Below, one piece after another: positions 5,839 to 64,000 of a DNA stretch of 64,000 nt. This DNA comes from an uncultured Bifidobacterium sp. (GTDB lineage: Bacteria; Verrucomicrobiota; Verrucomicrobiia; Limisphaerales; JADLHS01). Position numbers and translations under genes: made by a program. The number at the start of each line of letters is the position of its first letter. Positions within the stretch are counted from its first letter, which is position 1. The notes beneath the pieces were generated by a model, which ran no database searches, was not told the DNA's origin, and saw nothing but the letters and a program-made list of their open reading frames with translations. The stretch spans positions 14,025 to 78,024 of the forward strand of contig CAZLOH010000023.1 of assembly GCA_964561105.1 (NCBI GenBank), given 5' to 3'.

Positions 5839-5914
<76 letters not shown>

Positions 5915-6024: not shown

Positions 6025-6099
6025 GACCCTATGGTCTAGCGGTTAGGACACCTCCCTTTCACGGAGGTAGCCCGGGTTCGAGTCCCGGTAGGGTCGCCA
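6025..6099 (+). tRNA. tRNA-Glu (anticodon TTC)
   Basis: GACCCTATGGTCTAGCGGTTAGGACACCTCCCTTTCACGGAGGTAGCCCGGGTTCGAGTCCCGGTAGGGTCGCCA has a 7-bp acceptor stem, a T-arm GTTCGAGTC and anticodon loop CTTTCAC. Confidence 0.85.
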
Positions 6100-6798: not shown

Positions 6799-6870
6799 GT
6801 AGCCGCGGAGGTGACGAGGCGGAGGGTTCTATTCCTTCAAGCGCTTCCGCCTCCTCACGTCGGCGGCTAC
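6799..6870. repeat. palindromic repeat family 2 (24-bp arms around GTAGCCGCCGACGTGAGGAGGCGG), intergenic between the two STAS genes
   Basis: GTAGCCGCGGAGGTGACGAGGCGGAGG (6799-6825) and CCGCCTCCTCACGTCGGCGGCTAC (6847-6870) are imperfect reverse complements with a ~21-nt loop. Confidence 0.6.
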
Positions 6871-7350: not shown

Positions 7351-8979
7351 TCATTGTTTGACGTCAGCGGCTGGGTGGAGGCGTTTGATCAGGCGCAGGA
7401 CATTCTCATTCCCTTCCCGCGCGTAGTGGATTTCGTCCAGATTGCGACGGACCAGTTCGATGCCCCAACCGCCGGGCAAATCATCATCCTCGGCTTGCGG
7501 CTTGCGCGGCGCGGCGGCGGTGGGATCAAACTCCGGCCCGTCGTCGCGGAGTTCAACGGTAAACAAATCACCGGCGTTTTCGAGGATGACTTGAAATTTC
7601 CTCCCGGAGTCCCGGCGCAGCGCGTGGTTGACAATATTGCTGCCACATTCCTCCAGTGCCAGCGCGAGGTCGAATTTGGTTTGCTCCGGCACGCCCTGCT
7701 GCGCCGCGAATTCTTGCAAGGCTTCGACCCCGCGCATGACTTCCTCCGGCGTGGCGTGCAGTTCCAAATCCATGTAGCCACCGACGTGAAGAGGTGGATT
7801 TGATGCGATGCCGCGCTCCGCCTCCTCACGTCGGCGGCTACCATTGACTTTCAACGTCAGGATAGCGATGTCGTCCGATTGCGGGGCGCCATTCACAAAC
7901 GCCCGGACTTTCTGGAGCAGGCTCGCCGTGATGGCCGGCGCGCCCTGTCCCGTCCAGGTCCCGGCATCCGCCAGCAACCGGTCGTTGCCATAACATTCGT
8001 CCTGCGGATTGAACGCCTCGCTCACGCCGTCCGAATAAAGGATCAACGAATCTCCCGGCCGCAACTCCAGTTCCGTGCGCTCGAACTCCAAGCCGGGTTC
8101 GAATCCCAGCGCCGTGCCGAGGTTCGTCACCGCCCAGGACGGCGCGCCGCCCGTCGGCAAAAGCACCGGGCGACAATGCCCGCCATTGGCGATCGTCAAC
8201 CGTCCCGACTTCGGCTCGAAAACCGCGCACAGAAACGTCACGAACATGCCGGACGGGTTGTCGGCGGAGAGTTCATCATTGAGCCGCGCGAGAATCCGCT
8301 CCGGCTCGGTCAGTTCCCGCGCCAGCAAGCGCGCCAGACTGATCGCCCGCACCATGAACATCGAGGCGGGGATTCCCTTCCCCGAAACATCGCCCAGAAA
8401 AATCACCAGCCGATCCGCCCTCCCTGCGCACACGCCGTAAAGATCCCCGCCCACTTCGCGCGCCGGCTCCAGCACCGCTCCGAAACTCACGCCATAGGCG
8501 TGTTCGAACGGCGCAAAGTCGTGAGGCAACATGCCCATCTGGATTTCCCGGGCGACCCGCAGTTCGCTGGCGATCTGTTCCTTGGCCGCGTCGCTGTAAG
8601 CTTTGGCCTTGAGCAGCGACTTCACACGCGCCTTCACTTCGAGCATGTCGAACGGCTTGGTGAGATAATCGTTCGCGCCCAGCTCGAAGCCACGCGTCTT
8701 GTTCTGCACTTCTTCGAGCGAGGACAAGAACATGATTGGCACTTCCGCCGTCTCCGGCATCGCGCGGAGGCGACGACACACTTCGTAGCCATCCAGCCCC
8801 GGCATCACGATGTCGAGCAACACCAGGTCCGGCGGCATCTTGGCGGCAATCTGCAACGCTGTCTCGCCATTCATTGCGAGACTGAGCTTGTGATCGGCCT
8901 TCAACCCCTCGACGAGGATGTCGAGGTTGGCCTTGGCATCATCCACCAGCAACACGCGGCAGTCGGAAAGCTTTTTCAT
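7351..8979 (-). CDS. response-regulator receiver + PP2C (SpoIIE/RsbU-like) phosphatase + RsbW-like HATPase (anti-sigma kinase) fusion
   Basis: N-terminal REC (VLLVDDAKANLDIL...LLDIVMPGLDGYEV...ANDYLTKP), central PP2C (GGDLYGV...FLGDVSGKGIPAS...ILYSDGVSEA), and C-terminal HATPase_c_2 (ECGSNIVNHA...GGWGIELV). Confidence 0.75.
   Translation of the reverse strand: MKKLSDCRVLLVDDAKANLDILVEGLKADHKLSLAMNGETALQIAAKMPPDLVLLDIVMPGLDGYEVCRRLRAMPETAEVPIMFLSSLEEVQNKTRGFELGANDYLTKPFDMLEVKARVKSLLKAKAYSDAAKEQIASELRVAREIQMGMLPHDFAPFEHAYGVSFGAVLEPAREVGGDLYGVCAGRADRLVIFLGDVSGKGIPASMFMVRAISLARLLARELTEPERILARLNDELSADNPSGMFVTFLCAVFEPKSGRLTIANGGHCRPVLLPTGGAPSWAVTNLGTALGFEPGLEFERTELELRPGDSLILYSDGVSEAFNPQDECYGNDRLLADAGTWTGQGAPAITASLLQKVRAFVNGAPQSDDIAILTLKVNGSRRREEAERGIASNPPLHVGGYMDLELHATPEEVMRGVEALQEFAAQQGVPEQTKFDLALALEECGSNIVNHALRRDSGRKFQVILENAGDLFTVELRDDGPEFDPTAAAPRKPQAEDDDLPGGWGIELVRRNLDEIHYAREGNENVLRLIKRLHPAADVKQ
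7774..7841. repeat. palindromic repeat family 2 copy embedded in frame inside the RsbU-like CDS linker
   Basis: GTAGCCACCGACGTGAAGAGGTGG (7774-7797) and CCGCCTCCTCACGTCGGCGGCTAC (7818-7841) are reverse complements (21/24). The region encodes the linker ...SRRREEAERGIASNPPLHVGGY... between the PP2C and kinase domains. Confidence 0.6.
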
Positions 8980-9598: not shown

Positions 9599-9693
9599 GA
9601 ACAGGAGGAAACGGAGGAAACAGAGAGAGGCCAGGCCGAATTCCTCCGTTTCCTCTGTTCGCTCCTGTTTGATTGCCTTCGTCATGTTGTCCG
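9599..9693. repeat. third copy of the ~95-bp hairpin repeat, between GxxExxY and the sensor kinase 3' end
   Basis: GAACAGGAGGAAACGGAGGAAACAGAGAGAGG..CCTCCGTTTCCTCTGTTCGCTCCTGTTT...CGTCATGTTGTCC; the kinase stop codon (9682-9684) lies inside it. Confidence 0.6.
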
Positions 9694-12600
9694 GAGTTTC
9701 TTCACCGCCTGATCCAGCCGCGCCTGTGCGTCGGCGAATGAGTAACTCTGAACGCTTTTTTCAAACTGCGGCCAGCCATCGCCAGCAAACAACGGACGCA
9801 GCGCGGCCTGATTCGTTTCAAGAAAATCCGCCGCGCTGGGGTCGAACTCCGCGAGCAACCTGGTCAACTGCGCTGCAGCCTCGCGGGATTGCGCGGGATC
9901 CACCGTCGCCGCCGGCGTCGGCGCGGGCGCAGCCGAGGCAGACGCGGCCAAGCCTAACTTCAACGCGGCCACCAACGGACCGAGCGCGGCGGCCGTCTGC
10001 TGCCTGGCTGCGTCCAGTTCGAGCGGCGAGACTTTGCCCCGGATGCCTTTCTCCAACGTGGCAGCGGCGGACTGAATTTGGGTTGCGCCGATGTTGCCGG
10101 CCACGCCCTTGAGCGTGTGCGCCAGCCGTTCGGCGAGCGCGATGTCCCCTTGAGCGAGCGCCTCGGTGATTTGCGTCACCGCCGGCCCCTGTTGCTCGAC
10201 GAACTGCCGCAACAATTTCAGATACAACTTCCGATTGCCAGCCACGCGGGCCAGGCCGTCCTTCGTGTCGAGGCCGGGAATGGTGGCGCAGGTTTCCAAA
10301 CCTGCCGTATCGCCGATTTCCAAATCGGCACTGCGCCGCACAGATGTAGCCGTCGCAGGTTGGGAAACCTGCGATACTGCAGACTTGGAAGTCTGCGCCA
10401 CCGGGGCGGCAGCACCCCCCGTCGCTCCCCTCACCCCGTCCCTCTCCCCATCGGATGGGGAGAGGGTGTCCGCAGGACGGGTGAGGGGCTTGTAAAATCT
10501 GCCCACCGTCTCGAACAGGTTCGCCGGATCAATCGGCTTGGAGATGTGATCGTTCATCCCCGCGGCGAGGCAGCGTTGTTTCTCCTCCATCGTCGCGTGC
10601 GCAGTCATGGCGATGATCGGCAGGTTCGCCAGCCGCGCGTCGGCTCGCAACCTGGCTGTGGCCTGATAGCCGTCCATGACCGGCATCTGCAAATCCATCA
10701 GCACTATATCGAACGGCGGCGGCTGCGGATCCTTGGACAAGATGTCCACGGCTTCACGGCCATTGTTGGCGACCGTGACCGTGGCCCCCGCGCCTTCGAG
10801 CAGTTCAATGGCGATCTGCTGGTTGATCTCGTTGTCTTCGGTAAGCAGGATGCGCGCGCCGCGCAGGCGCGTGGCCGATTCGCCTTCCTTGGTTGTGGCC
10901 ACAGCCTCGCCCGTTTCGGCAAACACGTTCACCAGCGTGTCCACGATCATGGACTTGGTGACGGGCTTGACGAGAAAGCCATCCAACTGCAACCGCTCGG
11001 CCTCCTCGCGGACTTCTTCACGACCAAACGCCGTGACCAGCACAATGTGCGGCGGGTGCTGCAACGTCTCGTCGCCCTTGATGTGGCGACTGGCCTGCAA
11101 CCCATCCATGCCCGGCATCCGCCAGTCCATGAACACAATGTCGTAGGGCTCGGCCGCGTCCCGCTGTTGAACGGAGGCGATGGCTTCCTTGCCCGAGGCG
11201 ACGACATCCACACGCGCCGCGATGCCAACCAGCGGTTCCTGCAGAATCTCCCGGGCAGTGGGATTGTCATCCACGATGAGCACGCGAAGCTTGGCCAGTT
11301 TCTCGGGAACGATCTTGCCCGCCCCGGTTGCGGAACTGACCCCGAGCCAGACCGTGAAATAAAACGTGCTGCCCACGCCGGGTTCGCTTTCGAGCCAGAT
11401 GCGTCCACCCATCAGTTCGACGAGCCGCCGGCTGATGGTCAGCCCCAGGCCCGTGCCGCCGTGCTTCCGGGTCGTGGACATGTCCGCCTGCGTGAACGGT
11501 TCGAATAATTTTCCCGACTGCTCCTTCGTCATGCCGATGCCGGTATCGCGCACGGCAAACTTGAGTTGCACCTTTTCCCCGGTGCGCTCGACCTGTTGAA
11601 TCTCGAGCCGGATTTCGCCCTGCTCGGTGAACTTGACCGCGTTGTTCACGAAATTGGTCAGGATCTGGCCGAGGCGCAGCGGATCGCCGAGGAGGACTTC
11701 GGGAACGCCCGCCGCCGTGTGCGCCAAAAACTCCAGCCCTTTCTCATGCGCCTTCTGCGCGGTGAGCGTGGTGACGCTCGATATAACTTCGTCGAGCTTG
11801 AAGTCCGTCGTCTCGATGTCGAGCTTGCCCGCCTCGATCTTCGAGAAGTCGAGAATGTCATTGATGATGGCGAGCAGGGACGTGCCCGCGTTGTGGACCT
11901 TGCCGACGTAATCGCGCTGCTTGGGCGTGAGTTGAGTCTTCAGCGCGAGGTGCGAGAGGCCGATGATGGCGTTCATCGGCGTGCGGATTTCGTGGCTCAT
12001 GTTCGCGAGGAACATGGACTTCATCTCGGTGGCTTCCTCGGCCTTACCCTTGGCCAGCGCCAGTTCGCGCGCCTGTTCCTGCGTCTGACCCAGCAGCTCC
12101 TGCGTGCGAAGATTCCGCAACAGCACCTCCAGACTCATTGCCGCCACGGGCAATAACTCGTCCAGCAGGGCCTGTTCGCGGCTCGTGAACGTGCGAAAAC
12201 CGGCGACCTCGAGCACGGCCAGCAACGCGTTCGCCGAGGTCAACGGGAACGCCGTGACCTGCGTGGGCGCGGCTCCACCCAGGCCCGAAGCGATGCGCAG
12301 ATAGTCCGGCGGCAGGTCCGTGAGCGTCACCGCCTTGCGTTCCCGCGCGCATTGCCCGACCAATCCATCGCCCGGTTTGAATTCGCCCGCGTCCGCCGGT
12401 TCTTCCGCAAGGCCGTACGTCGCAACACGCGACAGCCGGCCCGCCGCTTCCTCGAACGAATACAAACCGGCCACCCCGCCGCCCAGCGCGGGCATGAGGC
12501 TGACCACCAAACGTTGCCCGAAGTCGGTGAGCGAACTCGCGCCCTGCAACGCGCCGGTGATTTGCCCGGCCGTGGATTTCACCCACCGCTGCTCATCCAT

Positions 12601-13374
12601 CGCCGCCGCGCCCTGCTTCAATATCTCCACCGACCGTGCCAGCCCGCCGGTCTCGTCGGTCGCATCCGTGAAGGGAACTTCCTTGGCGTAATCGCCGGCC
12701 GCGATCGTCTTGACGGAAGCTTCGAGCGCCTGAATCGGCCGGACGATCCGTCGAAAAGTGAAGTAACCCAGGAGGGCGGTCACCAGAATGGCGCTGGAGT
12801 TGGCGACGAGCATTTTCAACCGCGAAGTCGCGATGGTGTCGGTGGTGGCTTTGGCCGCCGCATCGGCGAGTTGCTCATTGTACTGAATCCACTCGCGCGA
12901 AATGTTGCCGGATCGGGAGACGATTTCTCCCATCGAACCGTTGAGCAGGGCCAGCGCCTCCGCTTTTTGGCCCGCGGTTGCCAAGGTCATTACTTGCTTC
13001 GCGGCAGAAACGTAGTCGCGGCTCAATTCTCGGAATTCGTTGAACAATCGGCGGTCCTTCTCATCCGAGATCAAAGTGTCCGCATACAGTTGGTACAACC
13101 GGACGAGTTCGGTTCCGTCGGCATCGAACAGCGCACGCGCTTGAGTCTGTTGGAGTTGATTGGTAGTGAGCACGAAGCTGCGGACGTTGACGCGCAGTTC
13201 GGCAAAGCTCCGGGAGATATTGCCGAGCGCCGCGAGACTCCCAATCTGGGTTTCCGCCACGAACTCGTTGCGCGCTTCGATCTGTGTGAGCTGGTAGCGC
13301 GTGAAGGCGCCCAGGATCAGCAGCGCCACCAGCGGGACAGCCACCAGCAGGGTCAGTCGTTTGGCGATCGTCAT
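9682..13374 (-). CDS. hybrid sensor histidine kinase (TM/HAMP, GAF, HisKA, HATPase, two REC, C-terminal Hpt)
   Basis: [18 protein letters not shown] (H-box), N/G1/G2 boxes (VRDTGIGM...[19 protein letters not shown]), two REC domains (VLIVDDNP...; [12 protein letters not shown]...) and an Hpt region. Confidence 0.85.
10427..10488. repeat. palindromic repeat family 1 (62 bp) inserted in frame in the sensor kinase
   Basis: CCCCTCACCCCGTCCCTCTCCCCATCGGATGGGGAGAGGGTGTCCGCAGGACGGGTGAGGGG is a nested perfect hairpin. It is translated on the minus strand as ...[24 protein letters not shown]... between REC2 and Hpt. Confidence 0.7.
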
Positions 13375-18467: not shown

Positions 18468-18911
18468 TCATCGCGGTGCAACTGGTGACGGTGCGGGCAC
18501 AAGTCCATGTTTAAGCAGGACCGTGTTCAACTTCTCAACATCGGGCGGCCCGCCGACATTCACGATGGTCGCCGCCTCTTCGAAGAAATCCGGGCCGAGG
18601 AGAGCCGGCGTAATGACGGCCAGTGCCTTCACCGCGGCCGGCTTCAGATTGTTGAATCCATGAACCGCTCCGCGCGGAATGAAGCAAGTTTGCCCCGGCC
18701 CGATGTCCACCGCCTTTCCCTCCACCGTGAACGTTAACACGCCTTCCACTCCGTAAATGGTTTCGTCGTATGCCTTGTGATAATGGGGCGCCGGCACCTT
18801 CGCTCCAACCGGCACTGTGAATTCAAACATCGCAACCGCGCCGTTCGTGTCGGCCGCTTCGAGCAGAAATCGGATGCCGATTTGCCCGACGCGGATGATT
18901 TCGGTTTTCAT
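18468..18911 (-). CDS. cupin-domain protein
   Basis: PHYHKAYDETIYGVEGVLTF...PRGAVHGFNN is a two-His/Glu cupin beta-barrel motif. Confidence 0.7.
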   Translation of the reverse strand: MKTEIIRVGQIGIRFLLEAADTNGAVAMFEFTVPVGAKVPAPHYHKAYDETIYGVEGVLTFTVEGKAVDIGPGQTCFIPRGAVHGFNNLKPAAVKALAVITPALLGPDFFEEAATIVNVGGPPDVEKLNTVLLKHGLVPAPSPVAPR

Positions 18912-34032: not shown

Positions 34033-34276
34033 AACGGCCAGGGAAAATGTTCGCCTCTGCGCACCAATCGCTCAAGCAGCCTGCTCAAAACCATCAACCC
34101 CCGGTAGCACGGCTCGCGCTGCGAGCCGTCGCGCCACGTCGAGCGGCGCGCAACGGGTGGAAACGTGCGCCCTCGGTCTTTCGCTTCCGCCCGCTGCACG
34201 CGGGCGGAGTCCTCGCAGCGCGAGAACTTCCACCTCAACGATGATGAGGCAAGACTACCGACGAGCCGGCATCGGT

Positions 34277-34326
34277 TGGTGGGGCGAGGCTCCCGACGAG
34301 CCGACTCGTGCGGACGCTCGCCCCAT
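34277..34326. repeat. palindromic repeat family 3 (TTGGTGGGGCGAGGCT..CTCGYGNGGACGCTCRCCCCA)
   Basis: Shares about 44 of 50 positions with the copy at 41651-41701 (opposite orientation); half-copies occur at 49578-49601 and 49782-49804. Confidence 0.6.
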
Positions 34327-34451
34327 CGCTTGGCCTGAAGGTAAGCGGCCGAATCGTCCACGGGGCCGAAGGCCCGCCAGATGGTAGCCTTGGGTTAATC
34401 GTCAAAGGAATTTGAGCGCGAAGGGGCGGCAACATCACGGGATGAAGCAAG

Positions 34452-35309
34452 TCAACCAAGCGCAAGTCCTCGCGTCCGCACGCGGATCAGCAGATCATTC
34501 AATGCAGCCCGCGTCGAGTTGCCGGGCAACTCGGGCAGTTCGCTCGCGTCATGCGCCGTCTGCAACTCACCGCGCAACCGCCGATACTCGGCTTCGTGGA
34601 AGGCGATGTCTGCGTCTTCGAGTTTGGATTTCTCTGGGCCGGCCAGTTTTCGCGCCACGAGTTCAGGAATGTAAGGCAATCGAAACTCCTCATTCAGCTT
34701 CACAAGGTTGGCTTCGATTTTGCCGGTGCGCATCAGGTGAATCCCCGTGAGCAATACGCGATAGACGTAGAGTAACGGCTTCACCCGTCGCGGGCGCTCT
34801 TTGTCGAACAGCTTCCACTGGGTTTCCGCGAATCCAAAGTAATGGTGCGAGTGATGTCGCGTGATGCAATCGCGCGCAATGGCCTTCAGTTCCGCGTGCT
34901 CCGGCGTGGTGTGGACAATGAGCGGCGAGAAAAGTTGTTCCAACACGTAACCGTTCTTCTTGAGCAGCAGGCCAAAGAACTTGCGCGCATCATGGCTCAC
35001 GATGTCCATCTCCAGCGCCTGTCCCTCACCCGCGGGAGCGGGAGAGGGTGGCGAAGCCGGGTGAGGGTCGTGGGGAGAAATCACCTCTCTGCGCGGAGGA
35101 TCAGGCGGCACAATCATTGACTGCTCGACCGTTTCGTCACGGACATCCAAACCGACGATCCGTTCGAGCGGCAACACATGTGCGCCACGCAGGTCAAAGT
35201 CGGAATCTGGCGACGGAAATCCGTAGAGGTGCGCGCCGCTGATCGTGGCAAACAACAGCGGATACGGCTGCGCCGCCACGATTCGTTGGAGGCGTGGATC
35301 AATGGTCAT
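34452..35309 (-). CDS. Pol-beta-superfamily nucleotidyltransferase (GS-x-YG...D-x-D active-site motif), paralogue 1
   Basis: ISGAHLYGFPSPDSDFDLRGAHV matches the hG[GS]...[DE]x[DE] minimal nucleotidyltransferase motif with a helical C-terminal domain. It resembles the 'predicted nucleotidyltransferase' family (PF10127-like) from memory. Confidence 0.55.
   Translation of the reverse strand: MTIDPRLQRIVAAQPYPLLFATISGAHLYGFPSPDSDFDLRGAHVLPLERIVGLDVRDETVEQSMIVPPDPPRREVISPHDPHPASPPSPAPAGEGQALEMDIVSHDARKFFGLLLKKNGYVLEQLFSPLIVHTTPEHAELKAIARDCITRHHSHHYFGFAETQWKLFDKERPRRVKPLLYVYRVLLTGIHLMRTGKIEANLVKLNEEFRLPYIPELVARKLAGPEKSKLEDADIAFHEAEYRRLRGELQTAHDASELPELPGNSTRAALNDLLIRVRTRGLALG
35021..35073. repeat. 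degenerate family 1 repeat copy in frame inside nucleotidyltransferase paralogue 1
   Basis: CCCTCACCCGCGGGAGCGGGAGAGGGTGGCGAAGCCGGGTGAGGG encodes ...HPASPPSPAPAGEGQ..., an insertion absent from the paralogue at 36157..37176. Confidence 0.45.
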
Positions 35310-38130: not shown

Positions 38131-38154
38131 GAGCCTCGTTGCCTCGGCTGCTAC
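38131..38154. repeat. repeat family 2 single arm (GAGCCTCGTTGCCTCGGCTGCTAC) between the trpE stop and the DUF6883 start
   Basis: Shares the CGGCTGCTAC core and preceding GTTTGAGCC with copies at 13801-13834 and 56008-56031. Confidence 0.45.
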
Positions 38155-39719
38155 AGGGTTTTCGCAAACGTCTCCGCCAATGCCACGGCTTTGAGCATGG
38201 CTTTGCTCTTGTTCACCGTTTCCTGGAATTCGGCTTCCGGCTCGGAGTCGTTCACCCAGCCGCCGCCGGCTTGCACGTAGGCCTGGCCGTCCTTGAGCAG
38301 CGCGGTGCGGATGGTGATGCACGTGTCCAGATTGCCGTTGAAACTGAAGTAACCCACGCAACCGGCATACGGCCCGCGGGTCGTGCCTTCGAGTTCGGAG
38401 ATGATCTGCATGGCGCGAATCTTCGGCGCGCCGCTCACCGTGCCCGCCGGAAACGTCGCGCGCATCAGGTCGTAGGGCGTTTTGCCGGCGGACAGTTTCC
38501 CCTCCACGCTCGACACGATGTGCATCACGTGGCTGTAACGCTCGATGATCATCAGGTCCTTTACCTGCACGCTGCCGAAATCGCACACACGCCCGATGTC
38601 GTTGCGCGCGAGGTCCACGAGCATGACGTGTTCGGCGCGTTCCTTCGGGTCGGCGAGCAGTTCCTTTTCCAACGCGGCGTCCTCGTCCGCCGTTTTGCCG
38701 CGACGCCGCGTGCCGGCAATGGGCCGGATCTCCACCTTGTTGTCCTCGCAACGCACGTGAATTTCCGGCGACGCACCGACGAGCGAAAAGCCATCGAGTT
38801 CGAGCAGAAACATGTAGGGCGAGGGATTCACCGAACGCGCGGCGCGGTAAACGTCCACCGGCGAGGCCTTGGTCTCGACGCTGAAGCGTTGCGAGCCGAC
38901 GACCTGGATGATGTCGCCGGCGGTGATGAATTTTTTGGAAGCCTGCACATTCGCCAAGAATGTTTCCTTGGCTACGTTTGAGGCAAATGGGACGGATGGG
39001 ACTTCAGATGGGACTGATACGGGCGTGTGCTCCAAGGGTTGTTCGAGCAACGAAAGCAGGCGTTCGATTTCCTCAACCGCCGTCTCATACGATTCCGTCG
39101 GGCTGGCGGCTTCGTCAATGGCGGCGTTGACGAGCACGGTGATGGTCTGCGCGACGCGATCGAACACGAGCAATTGATCCGCAACGATGAAATACATCGC
39201 GGGCGTGCCCAGTTCGTCGTGCGGCGGGCGCGGGACAACGGGTTCGACGTCGTGGATGAATTCGTAACCGATGAAGCCCACCGCACCGCCCGTGAAACGG
39301 GGCAAGCCGGGCAGCGTGACGGGACAGTATTTCTTCATCACGCGCTCGACGACTTCGAGGCCATCGCGGACGCCCCTCACCCCGTCCCTCTCCCCATCGG
39401 ATGGGGAGAGGGTGTCCGAAGGACGGGTGAGGGGTTTTCCTGCGACTTCAAACTTCTCTACGACTCTTCCGCCTTCGATCACCTCCACCTTGCTGCCGGT
39501 CTGCTTGATGACTGCCCGCGGATTGCAACCCACGAACGAGTAGCGCCCGAGATGTTCGCCGCCTTCCACGGATTCAAAGAGGAAGGATTCGCCCTGGCCG
39601 CGGATTTTGCGATAAGCCGAGAGTGGCGTTTCGATGTCGGCGAGGATGCGGCTGGTGACGGGGATCAGGTTGCCCTGCCCCGCCAGTTTCAGGAATTCAT
39701 CAAGGGACGGCGAAATCAT
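38151..39719 (-). CDS. trpE: anthranilate synthase component I
   Basis: Chorismate-binding C-terminal motifs (...[19 protein letters not shown]...[23 protein letters not shown]...) are present. Confidence 0.9.
39373..39434. repeat. palindromic repeat family 1 (62 bp) inserted in frame in trpE
   Basis: CCCCTCACCCCGTCCCTCTCCCCATCGGATGGGGAGAGGGTGTCCGAAGGACGGGTGAGGGG is 61/62 identical to the kinase copy. It is translated as ...[24 protein letters not shown]... in the TrpE N-terminal region. Confidence 0.7.
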
Positions 39720-41570: not shown

Positions 41571-41650
41571 ACCGGTTTCAACGCAAAGACGCTAAGACGC
41601 AGAGGCGCAAAGAGCGAGGAAATTTGGCGGTGGGCCGGTTCCCACTTCCG

Positions 41651-41701
41651 GTGGGGTGAGCGTCCTCGCGAGCTGGCTCGTCAGCAGCCTCGCCCCACCA
41701 A
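41651..41701. repeat. palindromic repeat family 3 copy (reverse orientation) between hisI and the DMT gene
   Basis: Reverse complement TTGGTGGGGCGAGGCTGCTGACGAGCCAGCTCGCGAGGACGCTCACCCCAC aligns with 34277-34326. Confidence 0.6.
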
Positions 41702-49476: not shown

Positions 49477-49577
49477 GGCTTCGCGCAGTGTATCCCGCAG
49501 GTCACCGCGAGCAAGCGTGACGTTTTGAACGGCGGACGCGGCGGGCGCGGCGAAGAGGCGTTGATGAGATTACAGCA

Positions 49578-49804
49578 GCTCGCGAGGACGCTCGCCCCAC
49601 CGATGCGCGAATTCCGAAGTCCGAGAGCCGAAAGAAATCCGAAGTCTGAAGGCCGAATGACTACCCTTCGCCTGACAGCCTTCCGAACTTGGTCCATCGC
49701 CGCCACGAACCACTTCGGATTTCGGAGCTCGGGCTTCTTTCGGATTTCGGAGATTCGGATTTCGGATTCAACAAGCGGTCGGCTCGCGAGGACGCTCGCC
49801 CCAC
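49578..49804. repeat. repeat cluster: two family 3 half-copies (GCTCGCGAGGACGCTCGCCCCAC) bracketing a hairpin-rich interior with TCGGATTTCGGA-type microsatellite
   Basis: Direct repeats at 49578-49601 and 49782-49804. Between them ccgaagtccgagagccgaaagaaatccgaagtc opposes cttcggatttcggag...ttcggatttcggagattcggatttcgg. Confidence 0.6.
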
Positions 49805-53390: not shown

Positions 53391-55898
53391 ATGAATCTGT
53401 TCGCGCGCCGAAGCCTGATGCTGATGGGCGTCATGGGCTTGAGCGCGTGCGAGCCAGATTCCACCGGAAAGCCAAACCGCATCAGCCCCGTGAATACCAA
53501 CGCACCTGCCACCTACCAGCACACCAACCACCTCGCCTCGGAAAAATCGCCCTACCTGCTCCAGCACGCGCACAATCCGGTGGACTGGTTCGCCTGGGGC
53601 GATGCGGCCTTTGCCAAGGCGCGCCGGGAAAACAAACCGATCTTCCTCAGCATCGGTTATTCGACCTGCCATTGGTGTCATGTGATGGAACGGGAGTCGT
53701 TCGAGGACGAAAAGGTCGGCGCGTTCCTCAACGAGCACTTCGTCAGCATCAAGGTGGACCGCGAGGAGCGACCGGACGTGGACAAGATTTACATGACGTT
53801 CGTGCAATCCACGACCGGCGGCGGCGGCTGGCCGTTGAATGTCTTCCTCACGCCGGACCGCAAACCGTTCTTTGGCGGCACGTATTTTCCGCCGGACGAT
53901 CGTTACGGGCGCGGCAGTTTTCTCTCCGTGCTCCAACAAGTCGCCTCCGTCTGGCGCGAACGCGGGTCAGAAGTCGCCGCGTCCGCCGACGAAATTCAGT
54001 CCCGGCTCGAACTCGCCACGAGCGCCACCAACACTTCCAGCCAGGCGCTCTCGCCGGAAATGCTGCGCCAGGCCGGATTGCTCTTCAAGGAAGCCTACGA
54101 TCCCCGGAACGGCGGTTTCGGCGGCGCACCCAAGTTTCCCCAACCCAGCATGCCCGCGCTCCTGCTGCGCTACGCCCAACGGTTCAATGACGCCGAAGCG
54201 CAGCAGATGGTGTTGAACACCTGCGATCACATGGCCGCCGGTGGGATTCACGATCAACTCAGCGGCGGTTTCGCGCGTTACTCCGTGGACGCCCAATGGC
54301 TCGTGCCGCACTTCGAGAAAATGCTCTACGACAACGCGCAACTCGCGCAGTTGTATCTCGACGCCTATCTCGTCAGCGGCGACACGCGACAGGCCGAGGT
54401 GGTGAGGGACATTCTGGACTACGTCCTGCGCGACATGACGCATCCGGACGGTGGTTTCTATTCCGCCGAAGACGCCGACAGCGAAGGGCAGGAAGGAAAG
54501 TTCTACTGCTGGACGCACGACGAATTGTCCAAACTGCTTTCGCCCGAGGAATTCAACGTGGCCGCGCGCTACTACGGCATCACGAAGGCCGGAAACTTCG
54601 TGGATCACAGCCATCCAACGCCGTTGACGGGGCAGAATGTTTTGAGTGTGGCCGTGCCCCTCACCCGGTCTTCGACCACCCTCTCCCCATCCAATGGGGA
54701 GAGGGAGAAGCGTCCGCCATCGCGCGACAAATCACAGACTGAAGTTGCGACTGCCGCTGCCGCAAAACCCGACAACGCCCGATTGCTGTCCCCTCTCCCT
54801 TTCGGAAGGGGAGAGGGTCAGGGTGAGGGGCTTTTGTCCGGTGACTACGCTCTCCTCGCCTCGGCCAAATCCAAAATGCTCGCTGCGCGCGCTCAGCGCA
54901 TCCGCCCGCACCTGGACGACAAGATTCTCGCTTCTTGGAACGGGCTGATGCTCGGTGCGTTTGCGCGCGCGTACGCCGTACTCGGCGACGAGCAGTATCT
55001 GACCGCAGCCGAAAGGAATTTGAAGTTCATTCGCGAGAAGCTCTGGGTTGAATCATCCGCCCTCACCCCAACCCTCCCCCCCGAGGAGAGGGAGAAACAT
55101 TCCCCGCGTTCTGGCGCAACCCCGACTGCCGACAGTTCAGCACACTCACACCAATCTGCGAGCGCCCAACGGCTGTCCCCTCTCCCCGGGGGAGAGGGTC
55201 AGGGTGAGGGGAAGCGAGCCATCGGAACTCTTTATCACCGCTGGCGTGATGGCGAACGGGACAACGTGCAACTTCTCGAAGCCTACGCCTGTCAACTCGA
55301 CGGCGTCCTCCAGCTTTACGAAGCCACACTTGATCCCAAACATCTCGACTTCGCCCTCGCGCTCGCGGAAACGATGATCGCCAAATTTTACGACGCCGAG
55401 CATGGCGGCTTCTGGCAAAGCGCCGCCGGCACATCGGATTTGATCCTCCGCGTGAAGGACGACTACGACGGCGCCGAACCTTCCGGCAACTCCGTCGCCA
55501 CCCTCGCGCTGTTGAAACTAGCCGCCATCACCGATCGCGCGGATTTCCGGAAGCCCGCCGAAGCCACGCTGCGCTTGTTCTCCACCCGGTTGGAAAAAAC
55601 GCCCCAGGCCGTGCCCTACCTGATGCTCGCATTGGATTTTTCACTGGAAGAACCACGCCGCGTGGTCATCGCCGGCGCCCCGCGATCCGACAAAGCCAAA
55701 GAATTGATTCACGCCGCACATTCGGTTTACCAGCCGGACAAGGTCGTGCTGGGTAATACCGGCGCGGTGGAGGAATTCGCCCACACGTTGCCCGCGAAAG
55801 ATGGCCCGGTGGTTTATCTTTGCACGGGTCAAGCCTGCCAGCCGCCGACGAGCGATCCGCAAACCGTCCGCCGACAACTGAATTCAAAGTCAGAATAA
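53391..55898 (+). CDS. thioredoxin-domain (DUF255/YyaL-like) protein with six-hairpin (N-acylglucosamine-epimerase-like) C-terminal domain, expanded by in-frame repeat insertions
   Basis: [44 protein letters not shown] is the DUF255 thioredoxin-like signature. The protein is 835 aa, versus ~690 typical for the family. Confidence 0.8.
54657..55210. repeat. four in-frame copies of palindromic repeat family 1 within the DUF255 gene
   Basis: Copies at 54657-54712 (..[12 protein letters not shown]..), 54790-54830 (..[15 protein letters not shown]..), 55060-55094 (..[11 protein letters not shown]..) and 55177-55210 (..[13 protein letters not shown]..). Each contains a CCCCTCTCCC..GGGGAGAGGG hairpin core. 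Confidence 0.65.
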
Positions 55899-55946
55899 TG
55901 GGGTCAGAATGATGTTTCGATTATTCTGACCCCATCATTCTGACCC
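55889..55946. repeat. ~60-bp interleaved-palindrome repeat, copy 1 (overlaps the DUF255 stop)
   Basis: GTCAGAATAATGGGGTCAGAATGATGTTTCGATTATTCTGACCCCATCATTCTGACCC is self-complementary; a near-identical copy lies at 56080-56147. Confidence 0.6.
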
Positions 55947-55960
55947 AACTTCGCGGCGCG

Positions 55961-56031
55961 ATAGCAGCCAACGTAAGGAGGCTCATTCTATGGGGACAAG
56001 GAAGTCAGAGCCTCCTTACGTCGGCTGCTAC
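55961..56031. repeat. palindromic repeat family 2 copy (arms ATAGCAGCCAACGTAAGGAGGCTC / GAGCCTCCTTACGTCGGCTGCTAC)
   Basis: Arms at 55961-55984 and 56008-56031 are reverse complements (22/24) with a 23-nt loop. Confidence 0.6.
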
Positions 56032-56079
56032 GGTTTTTCCCTGGAAAAGAGAAGGTCGTCCTCCGCAACCGAGTTCAAG

Positions 56080-56147
56080 GTCAGAATAATGGGATCAGAA
56101 TTATGTTCCGATGATTCTGCCAACATCATTCTGACCCGGCCTCAGTG
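56080..56147. repeat. ~60-bp interleaved-palindrome repeat, copy 2 (overlaps the 3' end of 56126..57877)
   Basis: GTCAGAATAATGGGATCAGAATTATGTTCCGATGATTCTGCCAACATCATTCTGACCC. Confidence 0.6.
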
Positions 56148-63386: not shown

Positions 63387-64000
63387 GTCGCGCTGCGACC
63401 AGCCCGTCCGCGCCGAGCGGACAGAATCGGGCGGGCGGGACATTCCGACGCGCTGCTTCGCACAGTGCGCGAAGTTCCACGCTCGAAGTTGGCGCACTTT
63501 GCAGTGCCGCCTCCCAACTTCGTTGCGTGCGCCGAAGATTTTTCCGGAGCGCGACTGTGTGCGCAGCACCAGCCGCAGCACATTCGAACGTCGAGTTGTG
63601 TTTCCTCTCCCCAACCGTTCTATTAAGGCGTAGCTGCTGCGGCTGGCTTTAGCCCAGCCGCGCTTGGGTCGCGGTTCTGTCGCGCTGCCAGCCCGTTCGC
63701 ACCGAGCGGTCAAAATCGGGCGGGCGGGATGTTCCGACACTCCTCGCAGCGCGAGGAGTTCCACCGCTCGTAGCTGGCACACTTTGCAGTGCTATCTCCC
63801 AACTTCGTTGTGTGCGCCGAAGATCTTTCCGGAGCGCGGCTGTGTGCGCAGCACCAGCCGCAGCACATTCGAGAAACCGCCCGCGCTGCGGCTGAGTCTT
63901 CGACCACAGCCGCGCTCCATGGGTCGCGGTTCTGTCGCGCTGCGACCAGCCCGTTCGCACCGAGCGGTCAAAATCGGGCGGGCGGGATGTTCCGACACTC
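63387..64000. repeat. tandem array (at least 2.3 copies, runs off window end) of a ~255-290-bp unit
   Basis: Units begin GTCGCGCTGC(GA)CCAGCCCGT.CGC.CCGAGCGG.CA.AATCGGGCGGGCGGGA at 63387, 63679 and 63934. A conserved ~210-bp core is followed by a variable 40-75-bp segment. Confidence 0.8.

Follow-up and report, generated by a model that had tools for sequence, protein, structure and literature searches.

What is a self-complementary stretch of 62 nucleotides doing, in almost the same letters, inside two unrelated genes of one soil bacterium? We asked this of a 64,000-nucleotide (nt) stretch of DNA from an uncultured member of the Verrucomicrobiota (NCBI GenBank assembly GCA_964561105.1, contig CAZLOH010000023.1, positions 14,025 to 78,024 of the forward strand; hereafter the window), in which the 62-mer CCCCTCACCCCGTCCCTCTCCCCATCGGATGGGGAGAGGGTGTCCG(C/A)AGGACGGGTGAGGGG is present twice on the + strand, at 10427-10488 (copy 1) and 39373-39434 (copy 2). 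A first-pass annotation had proposed that these are selfish hairpins inserted in frame in the manner of Rickettsia palindromic elements (RPEs). We find a multi-copy, DNA-level repeat inserted into protein-coding genes of this Verrucomicrobiota lineage and, more widely, of Verrucomicrobiota and Planctomycetota. Our interpretation, which we consider probable, is that the 62-mer is a repeat of the BoxC/PIT/TM family that has been inserted into coding genes of this lineage, that its in-frame survivors lie in loops and linkers, and that it may spread by hairpin-dependent copying.

The two copies are identical at 61 of 62 positions, differing only at element position 47 (10473 C, 39419 A), and a degenerate 62-mer pattern gave 0 mismatches at either copy and 0 matches in 100 dinucleotide-preserving shuffles. 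As the first-pass annotation had reported, both lie within intact long open reading frames (ORFs) and in one shared frame; they are antisense to the + strand, the ORFs run on the - strand, and each copy is read there as 21 residues beginning PLTRP(A/S). The host of copy 1 is a hybrid histidine kinase (9682..13374, -; 4HB_MCP-HAMP-GAF-HisKA-HATPase-2xREC-linker-Hpt by Pfam), where the element sits directly after FYKP in the linker between the last receiver (up to residue 957) and Hpt (from residue 1054). Copy 2 provides residues 96-116 of anthranilate synthase component I (TrpE; 38151..39719, -; Pfam), within the Anth_synt_I_N domain, whose match extends over 168 residues against a 140-position profile; we place it at the tip of a beta-hairpin loop of this N-terminal domain.

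We folded the element with ViennaRNA, which predicts Watson-Crick structure only. As single-stranded DNA, each copy forms a three-way structure in which a 10-bp outer stem, CCCCTCACCC/GGGTGAGGGG, surrounds a 12-bp hairpin and a 4-bp mini-hairpin, with every pair perfect in all three stems. The earlier description of a nested hairpin has to be revised for the shape, which is a three-way junction with a GNA mini-hairpin. The variable position 47 is the middle base of the GNA triloop (GCA in copy 1, GAA in copy 2). Predicted free energies of the copies are -27.5/-28.6 kcal/mol as DNA (z ~ -6) and -47/-48 kcal/mol as RNA, and G+C content is ~74% (46/62 bases). We also considered a G-quadruplex (G4), GGGGAGAGGGACGGGGTGAGGGG being a formal G4 motif, and dropped this reading because, with G4 allowed, the hairpin wins by more than 30 kcal/mol as RNA. 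No Rfam family matched the element in a scan of the window, in which only two tRNAs were above threshold, and a literature search with the encoded peptides gave nothing relevant.

The identity of the element emerged from its sequence blocks. Each strand of both 62-mers holds, in canonical order, a pyrimidine block CCCTCTCCCC, a loop, a purine block GGGGAGAGGG, a linker and a third strand GGGTGAGGGG. These agree exactly with the published BoxC/PIT/TM block set (pyrimidine CCCTCTCCC(C), purine (G)GGGAGAGGG, third strand GGGTGAGGG(G)) and are the blocks of the 23 TMECO/BoxC sequences of Escherichia coli K-12 (Table 1, PMC4666352). In copy 1, block 1 (CCCCTCACCC, 10427-10436, +) forms the outer stem's 5' arm, and its complement serves as third-strand block in the - strand motif; the central hairpin CCCTCTCCCCAT-CGG-ATGGGGAGAGGG (blocks 2 and 3, 10440-10466) is common to the triplex motifs of both strands; and block 4 (GGGTGAGGGG, 10479-10488, +) doubles as the outer stem's 3' arm and as third-strand block in the + strand motif. 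By a sequence criterion, 10/10 third-strand positions fit class II purine-motif triads (G.G-C, A.A-T or T.A-T). The - strand motif has the canonical 3-nt ACG linker and, if the AT/AT pairs are counted, a 3-nt hairpin loop, within the 1-6 nt ITxF limit. In the + strand motif, the 12-nt linker contains the mini-hairpin GTCC-GCA-GGAC (10468-10478, +), the folding of which would bring the blocks together. Judged by its blocks, the 62-mer classifies as a compact palindromic 'double' member of the BoxC/PIT/TM family, with two opposite-strand motifs around one central hairpin.

These repeats were named 'BoxC' in E. coli, later 'PIT' (potential intrastrand triplex) and then 'TM(ECO)' by Holder et al. 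2015 (PMC4666352; example CCCTCTCCCTGAGGGAGAGGGTTAGGGTGAGGGG), following work by Bachellier et al. in the 1990s and Hoyne & Maher (2000). In vitro, one strand of a TM repeat on its own folds into a class II purine-motif intrastrand triplex; the G/C-rich triplex motif is known from more than 260 genomes, and the 23 copies of E. coli K-12 are always intergenic, with five pairs inverted (PMC4666352). The same paper associates the motif with locally raised sequence rearrangement or genomic instability, gives no known mobility mechanism, and reports that BoxC in E. coli is unlinked to mobile elements, not having been found on phages, plasmids or transposons. The element shares with this family the identical core CCCTCTCCC(C)-loop-(G)GGGAGAGGG-3-nt linker-GGGTGAGGGG, multiple copies across many phyla, a frequent arrangement in inverted pairs, stems better conserved than loops, locally variable sequence and the lack of a known means of spreading. 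It differs in location, since 23/23 copies are intergenic in E. coli (a property of these copies, not of the motif definition) and 7/7 are genic and translated in the window. It also differs in architecture: the window carries two opposite-strand motifs on one hairpin, forming a 62-nt palindrome, whereas E. coli pairs are two separate hairpins with third-strand blocks facing, and one linker here is a 10-16-nt GNA mini-hairpin instead of 3 nt. In our reading of the sequences, the TTA linker of E. coli type A puts stops in two of the three G-strand frames, unlike the ACG and mini-hairpin linkers found here.

We searched one genome per species for CCCCTCACCC-N(1-16)-CCCTCTCCCC-N(3-9)-GGGGAGAGGG and found at least 120 loci. 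Among the matches listed are Enterobacteriaceae, Leclercia, Klebsiella, Stutzerimonas, Pseudomonas, Dyella, many Rhizobiales, Azospirillum, Acidobacteriota, Planctomycetota and Verrucomicrobiota, and the core blocks are near-identical from Enterobacteriaceae through Verrucomicrobiota. The triplex-motif pattern was also present in at least 120 stretches of IMG/VR viral or proviral contigs (L208-L327), where provirus calls may include host flanks.

We aligned 18 distinct double-motif copies from fetched DNA of Verrucomicrobiota, Acidobacteriota and one gammaproteobacterial metagenome-assembled genome (MAG). In every case the long linker is a stem of 3-5 bp capped by a loop such as GAA or GCA, for example GTCC-GMA-GGAC, GCCC-GAA-GGGC, GGCC-GAA-GGCC, GGC-GAA-GCC and GGCG-TCT-CGCC. 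In three of the four mini-hairpin pairs both partners change (one pair occurs as UA in 5, CG in 4 and GC in 4), two loop-proximal pairs of the central hairpin covary too, and the triplex blocks are almost invariant; the covariation score was matched by 1/500 shuffles and exceeded all slid controls. Invariant blocks together with covarying accessory stems would be expected if pairing were constrained in three ways (Watson-Crick plus Hoogsteen) or if the blocks were recognized by their sequence. The C-G-closed GAA/GCA triloop on a 3-5-bp stem resembles GNA mini-hairpins of the d(GCGAAGC) type, and the subfamily with the linker TGGCGAAGCC contains GCGAAGC exactly, which we take to be the classical ultra-stable DNA mini-hairpin sequence. 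Such hairpins are said, from the work of Hirao et al. in the 1990s, to be isolated, unusually stable structures at phage origins and promoters, not dispersed repeats.

We looked for evidence of insertion at the TrpE site in the 120 closest TrpE proteins (83-100% identity; Verrucomicrobiota, 'Pedosphaera sp.'), with orthologue DNA from seven homologue loci and one metagenome scan; the exact window TrpE sequence had no match in the assembly index. Query residues 93-115 are the sole internal length difference in this set. A short 11-residue loop is present in 49/120 and the element in sense orientation in 8/120, with a further 4 that carry a frameshifted peptide (e.g. LSHPMGGGRGEG) and retain the DNA; another 8/120 were assigned a related element in opposite orientation by automatic classification, although P0108 among these reads as the sense form. 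The opposite-orientation form belongs to a 60-nt subfamily with the TGGCGAAGCC linker, as does the copy in the window's RlaP-family gene described below, and is therefore no simple flip. The same loop also hosts at least five unrelated repeat peptides (GRAGSPLPAA…SDAPYQ; RDALPRVQADQQVGPT; RRTGVAPVS…DRRDACPT; RSAPVPGAA…AAGTAALH; …ETGAP), themselves encoded by palindromes. A minimal loop, F-x-[IV]-G-[KR]-D-V-K-DGL with a 3-residue tip, is found in relatives at 74-80% identity, compared with which the window trpE is exactly 63 nt longer (62 + 1), and the sequence of the Mycobacterium tuberculosis TrpE structure has a short loop as well.

Three further TrpE loci deserve mention. L120, another Verrucomicrobia MAG, has the element in the same loop. 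In L121 (3470-5766), the closest metagenome orthologue at 90%, the loop holds a decayed opposite-orientation element, and the TrpE match covers 2297 nt for 521 residues, which suggests ~730 nt of extra sequence in the gene. The L122 loop (RSAAVSAAAG…AAAGIAALH) is filled by the palindrome family of a window array at 63387-63996, which lies downstream of a Calx-beta protein gene and consists of ~289-nt units (families D2, D5) with the palindrome GGAGCGCGGCTG…CAGCCGCGCTCC.

The element DNA is kept more constant than its host gene. Compared with P0012, the window's element is identical at 61/62 positions, against 83.3% for the rest of trpE (P=1.6e-4) and 63% at four-fold sites (P=1.5e-11). Against P0113 the element is identical at 56/62 and the gene at 76.8%, with a compensated AT..AT to GC..GC change at the hairpin top. 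The P0004 element, at 55/62 versus 88.4% for the gene, is a decaying copy. Either the copies have been refreshed repeatedly, by conversion or re-insertion, or their structure is selected.

At the protein level, the 62-mer can be read through in four of its six frames, the exceptions being frame 1 of each strand, which ends GGG-TGA-GGG. Because of this, the common frame of the two window copies, which had been offered as evidence, carries little weight alone; as a sign of peptide selection we rejected it, the chance of agreement being ~1 in 4 given four open frames. In 360 homologues, only frames 0 (LSPSDGER-type) and 2 (PLPxGxGEG-type) were found and frame 1 never, and net insert lengths were multiples of three in all orthologue comparisons. 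Since only stop-free frames and lengths of 3n are seen, the codons of the element must be read and not bypassed. Surviving copies thus add 3n bases, use one of four stop-free frames and sit in surface loops or interdomain linkers, which is why we regard the Pro/Ser/Gly/Asp/Glu/Arg-rich peptide as a passenger and not as a selected module.

The same behavior is seen in other genes. A relaxed scan gave seven motif sites in the window, 7/7 inside ORFs with Pfam support, and the degenerate in-frame copies that the first-pass annotation had placed in two further genes are present in both. In the RlaP-family gene (34452..35309, -), a degenerate copy with a TGGCGAAGCC-type linker (35017-35067, +) is read in frame as PHPASPPSPAPAGEG, in another reading frame than the two 62-mers. 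The second gene (53391..55898, +) encodes an 835-residue thioredoxin-domain DUF255/YyaL (SSP411-like) protein and contains four single motifs as two inverted pairs, both in frame. The pair in loop 1 (54657-54831; - strand motif 54658-54705, + strand motif 54791-54829) has its third-strand blocks outermost, and that in loop 2 (55060-55212; 55060-55092, -, and 55178-55210, +) is more degenerate. YyaL orthologues without inserts have ~690-720 residues; minimal ones read …NVLSV-QS-NVPAADQS-LLA… and …KLW-DAKSK-TLYHRW… at the two loops, where others carry motif pairs, single double-motifs or other repeats.

In the kinase, the REC-Hpt linker has 92 residues, compared with typically ~45-52 in the family. 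The closest homologue of its C-terminus is ~67% identical, and no strict orthologue comparison is possible because none above this level was found. Homologue P0254 has the neighboring repeat and lacks the 62-nt element, and P0243 and P0299 have the element in opposite orientation directly after FYKP/FYRP. The neighboring repeat is a second, unrelated palindrome of ~121 nt (10282-10402; arms 10282-10329 and 10355-10402, 79% complementary), in frame in the linker and ~25 nt from the 62-mer; its peptide occurs at the same place in P0254 and P0291.

Beyond the window, Pfam domains flank or enclose inserts in an ABC transporter, a Ser/Thr kinase, UvrB, HrpB and LigA of other Verrucomicrobiota and Planctomycetota. 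Real gene calls for the seven TrpE loci (137 kb, of which 90% is coding) place copies within genes as well as at three intergenic sites. We then counted a motif site as ORF-spanned if an ORF extended at least 80 codons on each side. Among the matches listed, this held for 7/9 sites in Verrucomicrobiota, 6/8 in Planctomycetota, 0/10 in Acidobacteriota and 19/83 in all other phyla, or 13/17 in Verrucomicrobiota plus Planctomycetota versus 19/93 elsewhere (P=1.4e-5), and for 60-73% of random sites in the same loci. In one Verrucomicrobiia Ser/Thr kinase (L048, 922-970), a double-motif element lies in frame in the activation segment, between DFG and P+1/APE (…ITDFGLAKRLVEQPLTRPSGPLSPSEGERDGMRGPAAASHDLTLTGQVLGSPNFMPPE…). 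A 21.6-kb locus of a close relative (L204) has four copies, including 7667-7725, 8435-8494 and 18569-18615: two are intergenic around hisI (PRA-CH), one is in TrpE and one is in a 150-residue ORF with a weak Chorismate_bind match, possibly a trpE-like gene fragment.

We compared the element with other repeats that enter genes. The first-pass annotation was right that the copies are in-frame insertions in unrelated genes, at loops and linkers, and members of a large family; hence their behavior resembles that of RPEs (Ogata et al. 2000; reviewed in PMC10969869), palindromes that lie in frame in unrelated housekeeping genes, add a peptide at tolerated positions and also occur between genes. In-frame insertion into unrelated genes, absent from orthologues, was found in TrpE, YyaL, the kinase and RlaP, and elsewhere in UvrB, LigA, HrpB, a Ser/Thr kinase and an ABC transporter. 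By sequence the element is no RPE, the blocks being those of BoxC/PIT/TM: RPEs are ~100-150 bp and confined to Rickettsia and relatives, whereas the element is 62 bp with triplex-motif blocks and a pan-bacterial core, and RPE families keep their encoded peptide, whereas here the peptide changes with orientation or frameshift and the DNA stays. We judge the absence of sequence similarity from block identity and the changing peptide, not from an RPE alignment. The resemblance is one of behavior, not of family membership. RPEs are also A+T-rich.

Could the element instead be a classical transposon derivative, either a miniature inverted-repeat transposable element (MITE) moved by a DDE transposase with target-site duplication (TSD), or a REP/REPIN moved by its own RAYT (Y1)? 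We regard this as possible but doubtful. The 10-bp outer stem amounts to terminal inverted repeats, copies are many and in both orientations, longer composites with inverted blocks at their ends (54657-54831) look MITE-like, and hairpin architecture without TSD would suit single-strand transposition of the HUH/Y1 type. Like REP/BIME/REPIN sequences, the element is a short, G+C-rich imperfect palindrome with many copies, inverted pairs, no target duplication and a form suited to single-strand hairpin recognition. Against a derivation of this kind, neither the TrpE nor the kinase junctions show a TSD, core blocks are near-identical from Enterobacteriaceae to Verrucomicrobiota, and BoxC has no reported link to mobile elements in E. 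coli (PMC4666352). REPs, moreover, are extragenic by definition, have a GTAG head and are lineage-specific with a RAYT gene; no such head, and no transposase domain among the 14 window proteins scanned, was found here. REP/RAYT pairs are lineage-specific, unlike the pan-bacterial core blocks of the element. Intragenic MITEs (intragenic ERIC, Nezha and other cyanobacterial MITEs, Coxiella QMITE; PMC10969869) are likewise small, non-autonomous repeats with occasional in-frame ORF fusions, but they have terminal inverted repeats plus TSD, derive from insertion sequences, and are usually A+T-rich and mostly intergenic; at both 62-mers, terminal inverted blocks are present and a flanking direct repeat is absent.

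Selection on the host's behalf could also account for the copies, with the -48 kcal/mol mRNA hairpin pacing translation or folding or stabilizing the mRNA, or with the DNA acting as a hotspot that diversifies surface loops. Structure kept by compensatory changes and conserved more than the gene, copies at domain boundaries and loops, the association of the motif with local genomic instability (PMC4666352), and TrpE and YyaL loops that are hypervariable exactly at the repeat sites are all in keeping with this. We nevertheless find it improbable: many close orthologues work insert-free (the short loop in 49/120 TrpE), several copies are visibly decaying (P0004 at 55/62, the RlaP copy, 55060-55092), earlier studies detected neither promoter nor terminator activity, nor any effect in vivo, for PIT elements (cited in PMC4666352), and loop location is what purifying selection alone would leave. 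That the 21-residue segment is an old, selected linker or loop module with an incidental DNA palindrome is very unlikely. The same peptide does occupy the same position in TrpE orthologues down to 83% identity, and it recurs after FYKP in several kinase homologues. The orthologue comparison is therefore mixed at first sight, with the element at the same position in TrpE of 83-93% identity; but relatives at 74-80% have the minimal loop, the M. tuberculosis sequence has a short one, and equally close orthologues are empty or hold unrelated repeats there. In addition, both orientations and frameshifted forms draw other peptides from conserved DNA, identical DNA also stands in intergenic positions, and the DNA is more conserved than the host gene's synonymous sites. 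To an assembly or binning artefact, in which repeat-induced chimeric joins mimic in-frame insertions, we give practically no credence. The data do come entirely from metagenome assemblies, and repeats are typical places for assemblies to break or to join; but no ORF is broken, homologous sequence and Pfam domains lie to either side of the inserts, net lengths are exact multiples of three, and the same filled site recurs in independent JGI, ENA and NCBI assemblies (for P0004, 24 carrying contigs from 37 index blocks).

Several observations weigh against our main interpretation. One old insertion and subsequent homologous recombination between strains could also account for the common TrpE position and the likeness of the junctions. 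A protein neighbor-joining tree of TrpE scatters the loop types but is poorly resolved, and it is no proof of independent insertions because of the 83-100% identity and likely recombination. High element identity could reflect recent re-insertion, not constraint or conversion. We saw no direct repeats flanking the element at the TrpE or kinase junctions, no associated transposase and no transposition event, so that 'selfish and mobile' is better treated as a conjecture. Alignment of the filled intergenic site at L204 8435-8494 with syntenic empty sites gave no guide to a TSD, since the spacers have diverged too far and contain other repeats. The 12-nt linker of the + strand motif is beyond the 1-6 nt loops that define motifs in PMC4666352, and the triplex may be irrelevant, because the same paper saw no stable triplex in vivo in a double-stranded context. 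The AlphaFold2 model of TrpE, built from a shallow alignment in which all sequences are at least 82% identical, has a pLDDT of 47, too poor for placement in three dimensions; its secondary-structure call puts the insert in coil between two strands. Finally, all relatives compared are metagenome assemblies, and the cross-phylum counts take ORFs as a proxy for genes in G+C-rich DNA.

How might a BoxC/PIT/TM repeat reach such positions? Copies may multiply and be homogenized by a single-strand, hairpin-dependent process without target duplication, for which candidate agents are an HUH/Y1-type transposase acting in trans, or template switching plus gene conversion at stalled forks. A structured repeat already in place could make its site fragile and prone to re-use or overwriting by other repeat families, and such re-use would yield the 'landing-pad' loops of TrpE and YyaL. 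A bolder form of this idea is that structured palindromic repeats, the triplex-motif family among them, enter coding sequence of Verrucomicrobiota and Planctomycetota at a near-random rate, with the TrpE tip, the two YyaL loops and the REC-Hpt linker as shared landing pads on which at least six unrelated families replace one another in both orientations; we think this rather unlikely as a general account.

Other repeats and genes of the window are noted here for completeness. The repeat family TCCGCCTCCTCACGTCGGCGGCTAC has a copy at 7817-7841 and others at 6846, 13801, 42998 and 56007. The first of these is in frame in a response-regulator phosphatase (7351..8979), in the linker from SpoIIE (ending at 378) to HATPase_c_2 (starting at 408), and encodes …RRREEAE…PPLHVGGY…; the same peptide type occurs in YyaL loop 1 of P0128 and P0154, in UvrB (L055) and in HrpB (L060). 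A dispersed G+C-rich family, GGTGGGGCGAGGCTCCCGACGAGCC…, is present in direct and inverted copies (34276-34328, 41649-41701, 49576-49602, 49782-49804), and a repeat with many GGGTCAGAATGATG-type palindromes occurs twice, at a distance of 191 nt, from the 3' end of the YyaL gene onward (55875-56137). The two tRNA genes, the sole Rfam matches in the window, are divergent (5842-5914, -, and 6025-6096, +).

BoxC/PIT/TM repeats have been known for ~30 years and were described as intergenic; here they are translated inside essential genes (TrpE in the window, and UvrB, LigA and a kinase activation segment in relatives). New with respect to the papers we found are this translated intragenic location, the compact palindrome with a GNA mini-hairpin, the loops shared as landing pads and a conservation that exceeds that of the host gene. 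A consequence for annotation is that the 'LSPSDGER…' and 'SPLPxGEGxGEG' segments so common in predicted proteins of Verrucomicrobiota and Planctomycetota are repeat-derived and not domains. The contrast between invariant triplex blocks and covarying hairpins offers a way of testing whether triplex register, and not the hairpin alone, is maintained. If the landing-pad account were true, insertion would be structure-targeted or would proceed by cassette exchange (into an existing hairpin, or by break repair at one) together with gene conversion that keeps the copies near-identical, a three-way pairing constraint or a universal host factor would lie behind the constancy of the triplex blocks across bacteria, and loop length in these phyla would evolve mainly through repeat turnover. 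The filled, empty and replaced alleles at one codon could reveal the insertion mechanism through strain-level genomes, and the inserts themselves are a natural assay of where proteins tolerate ~21 extra residues.

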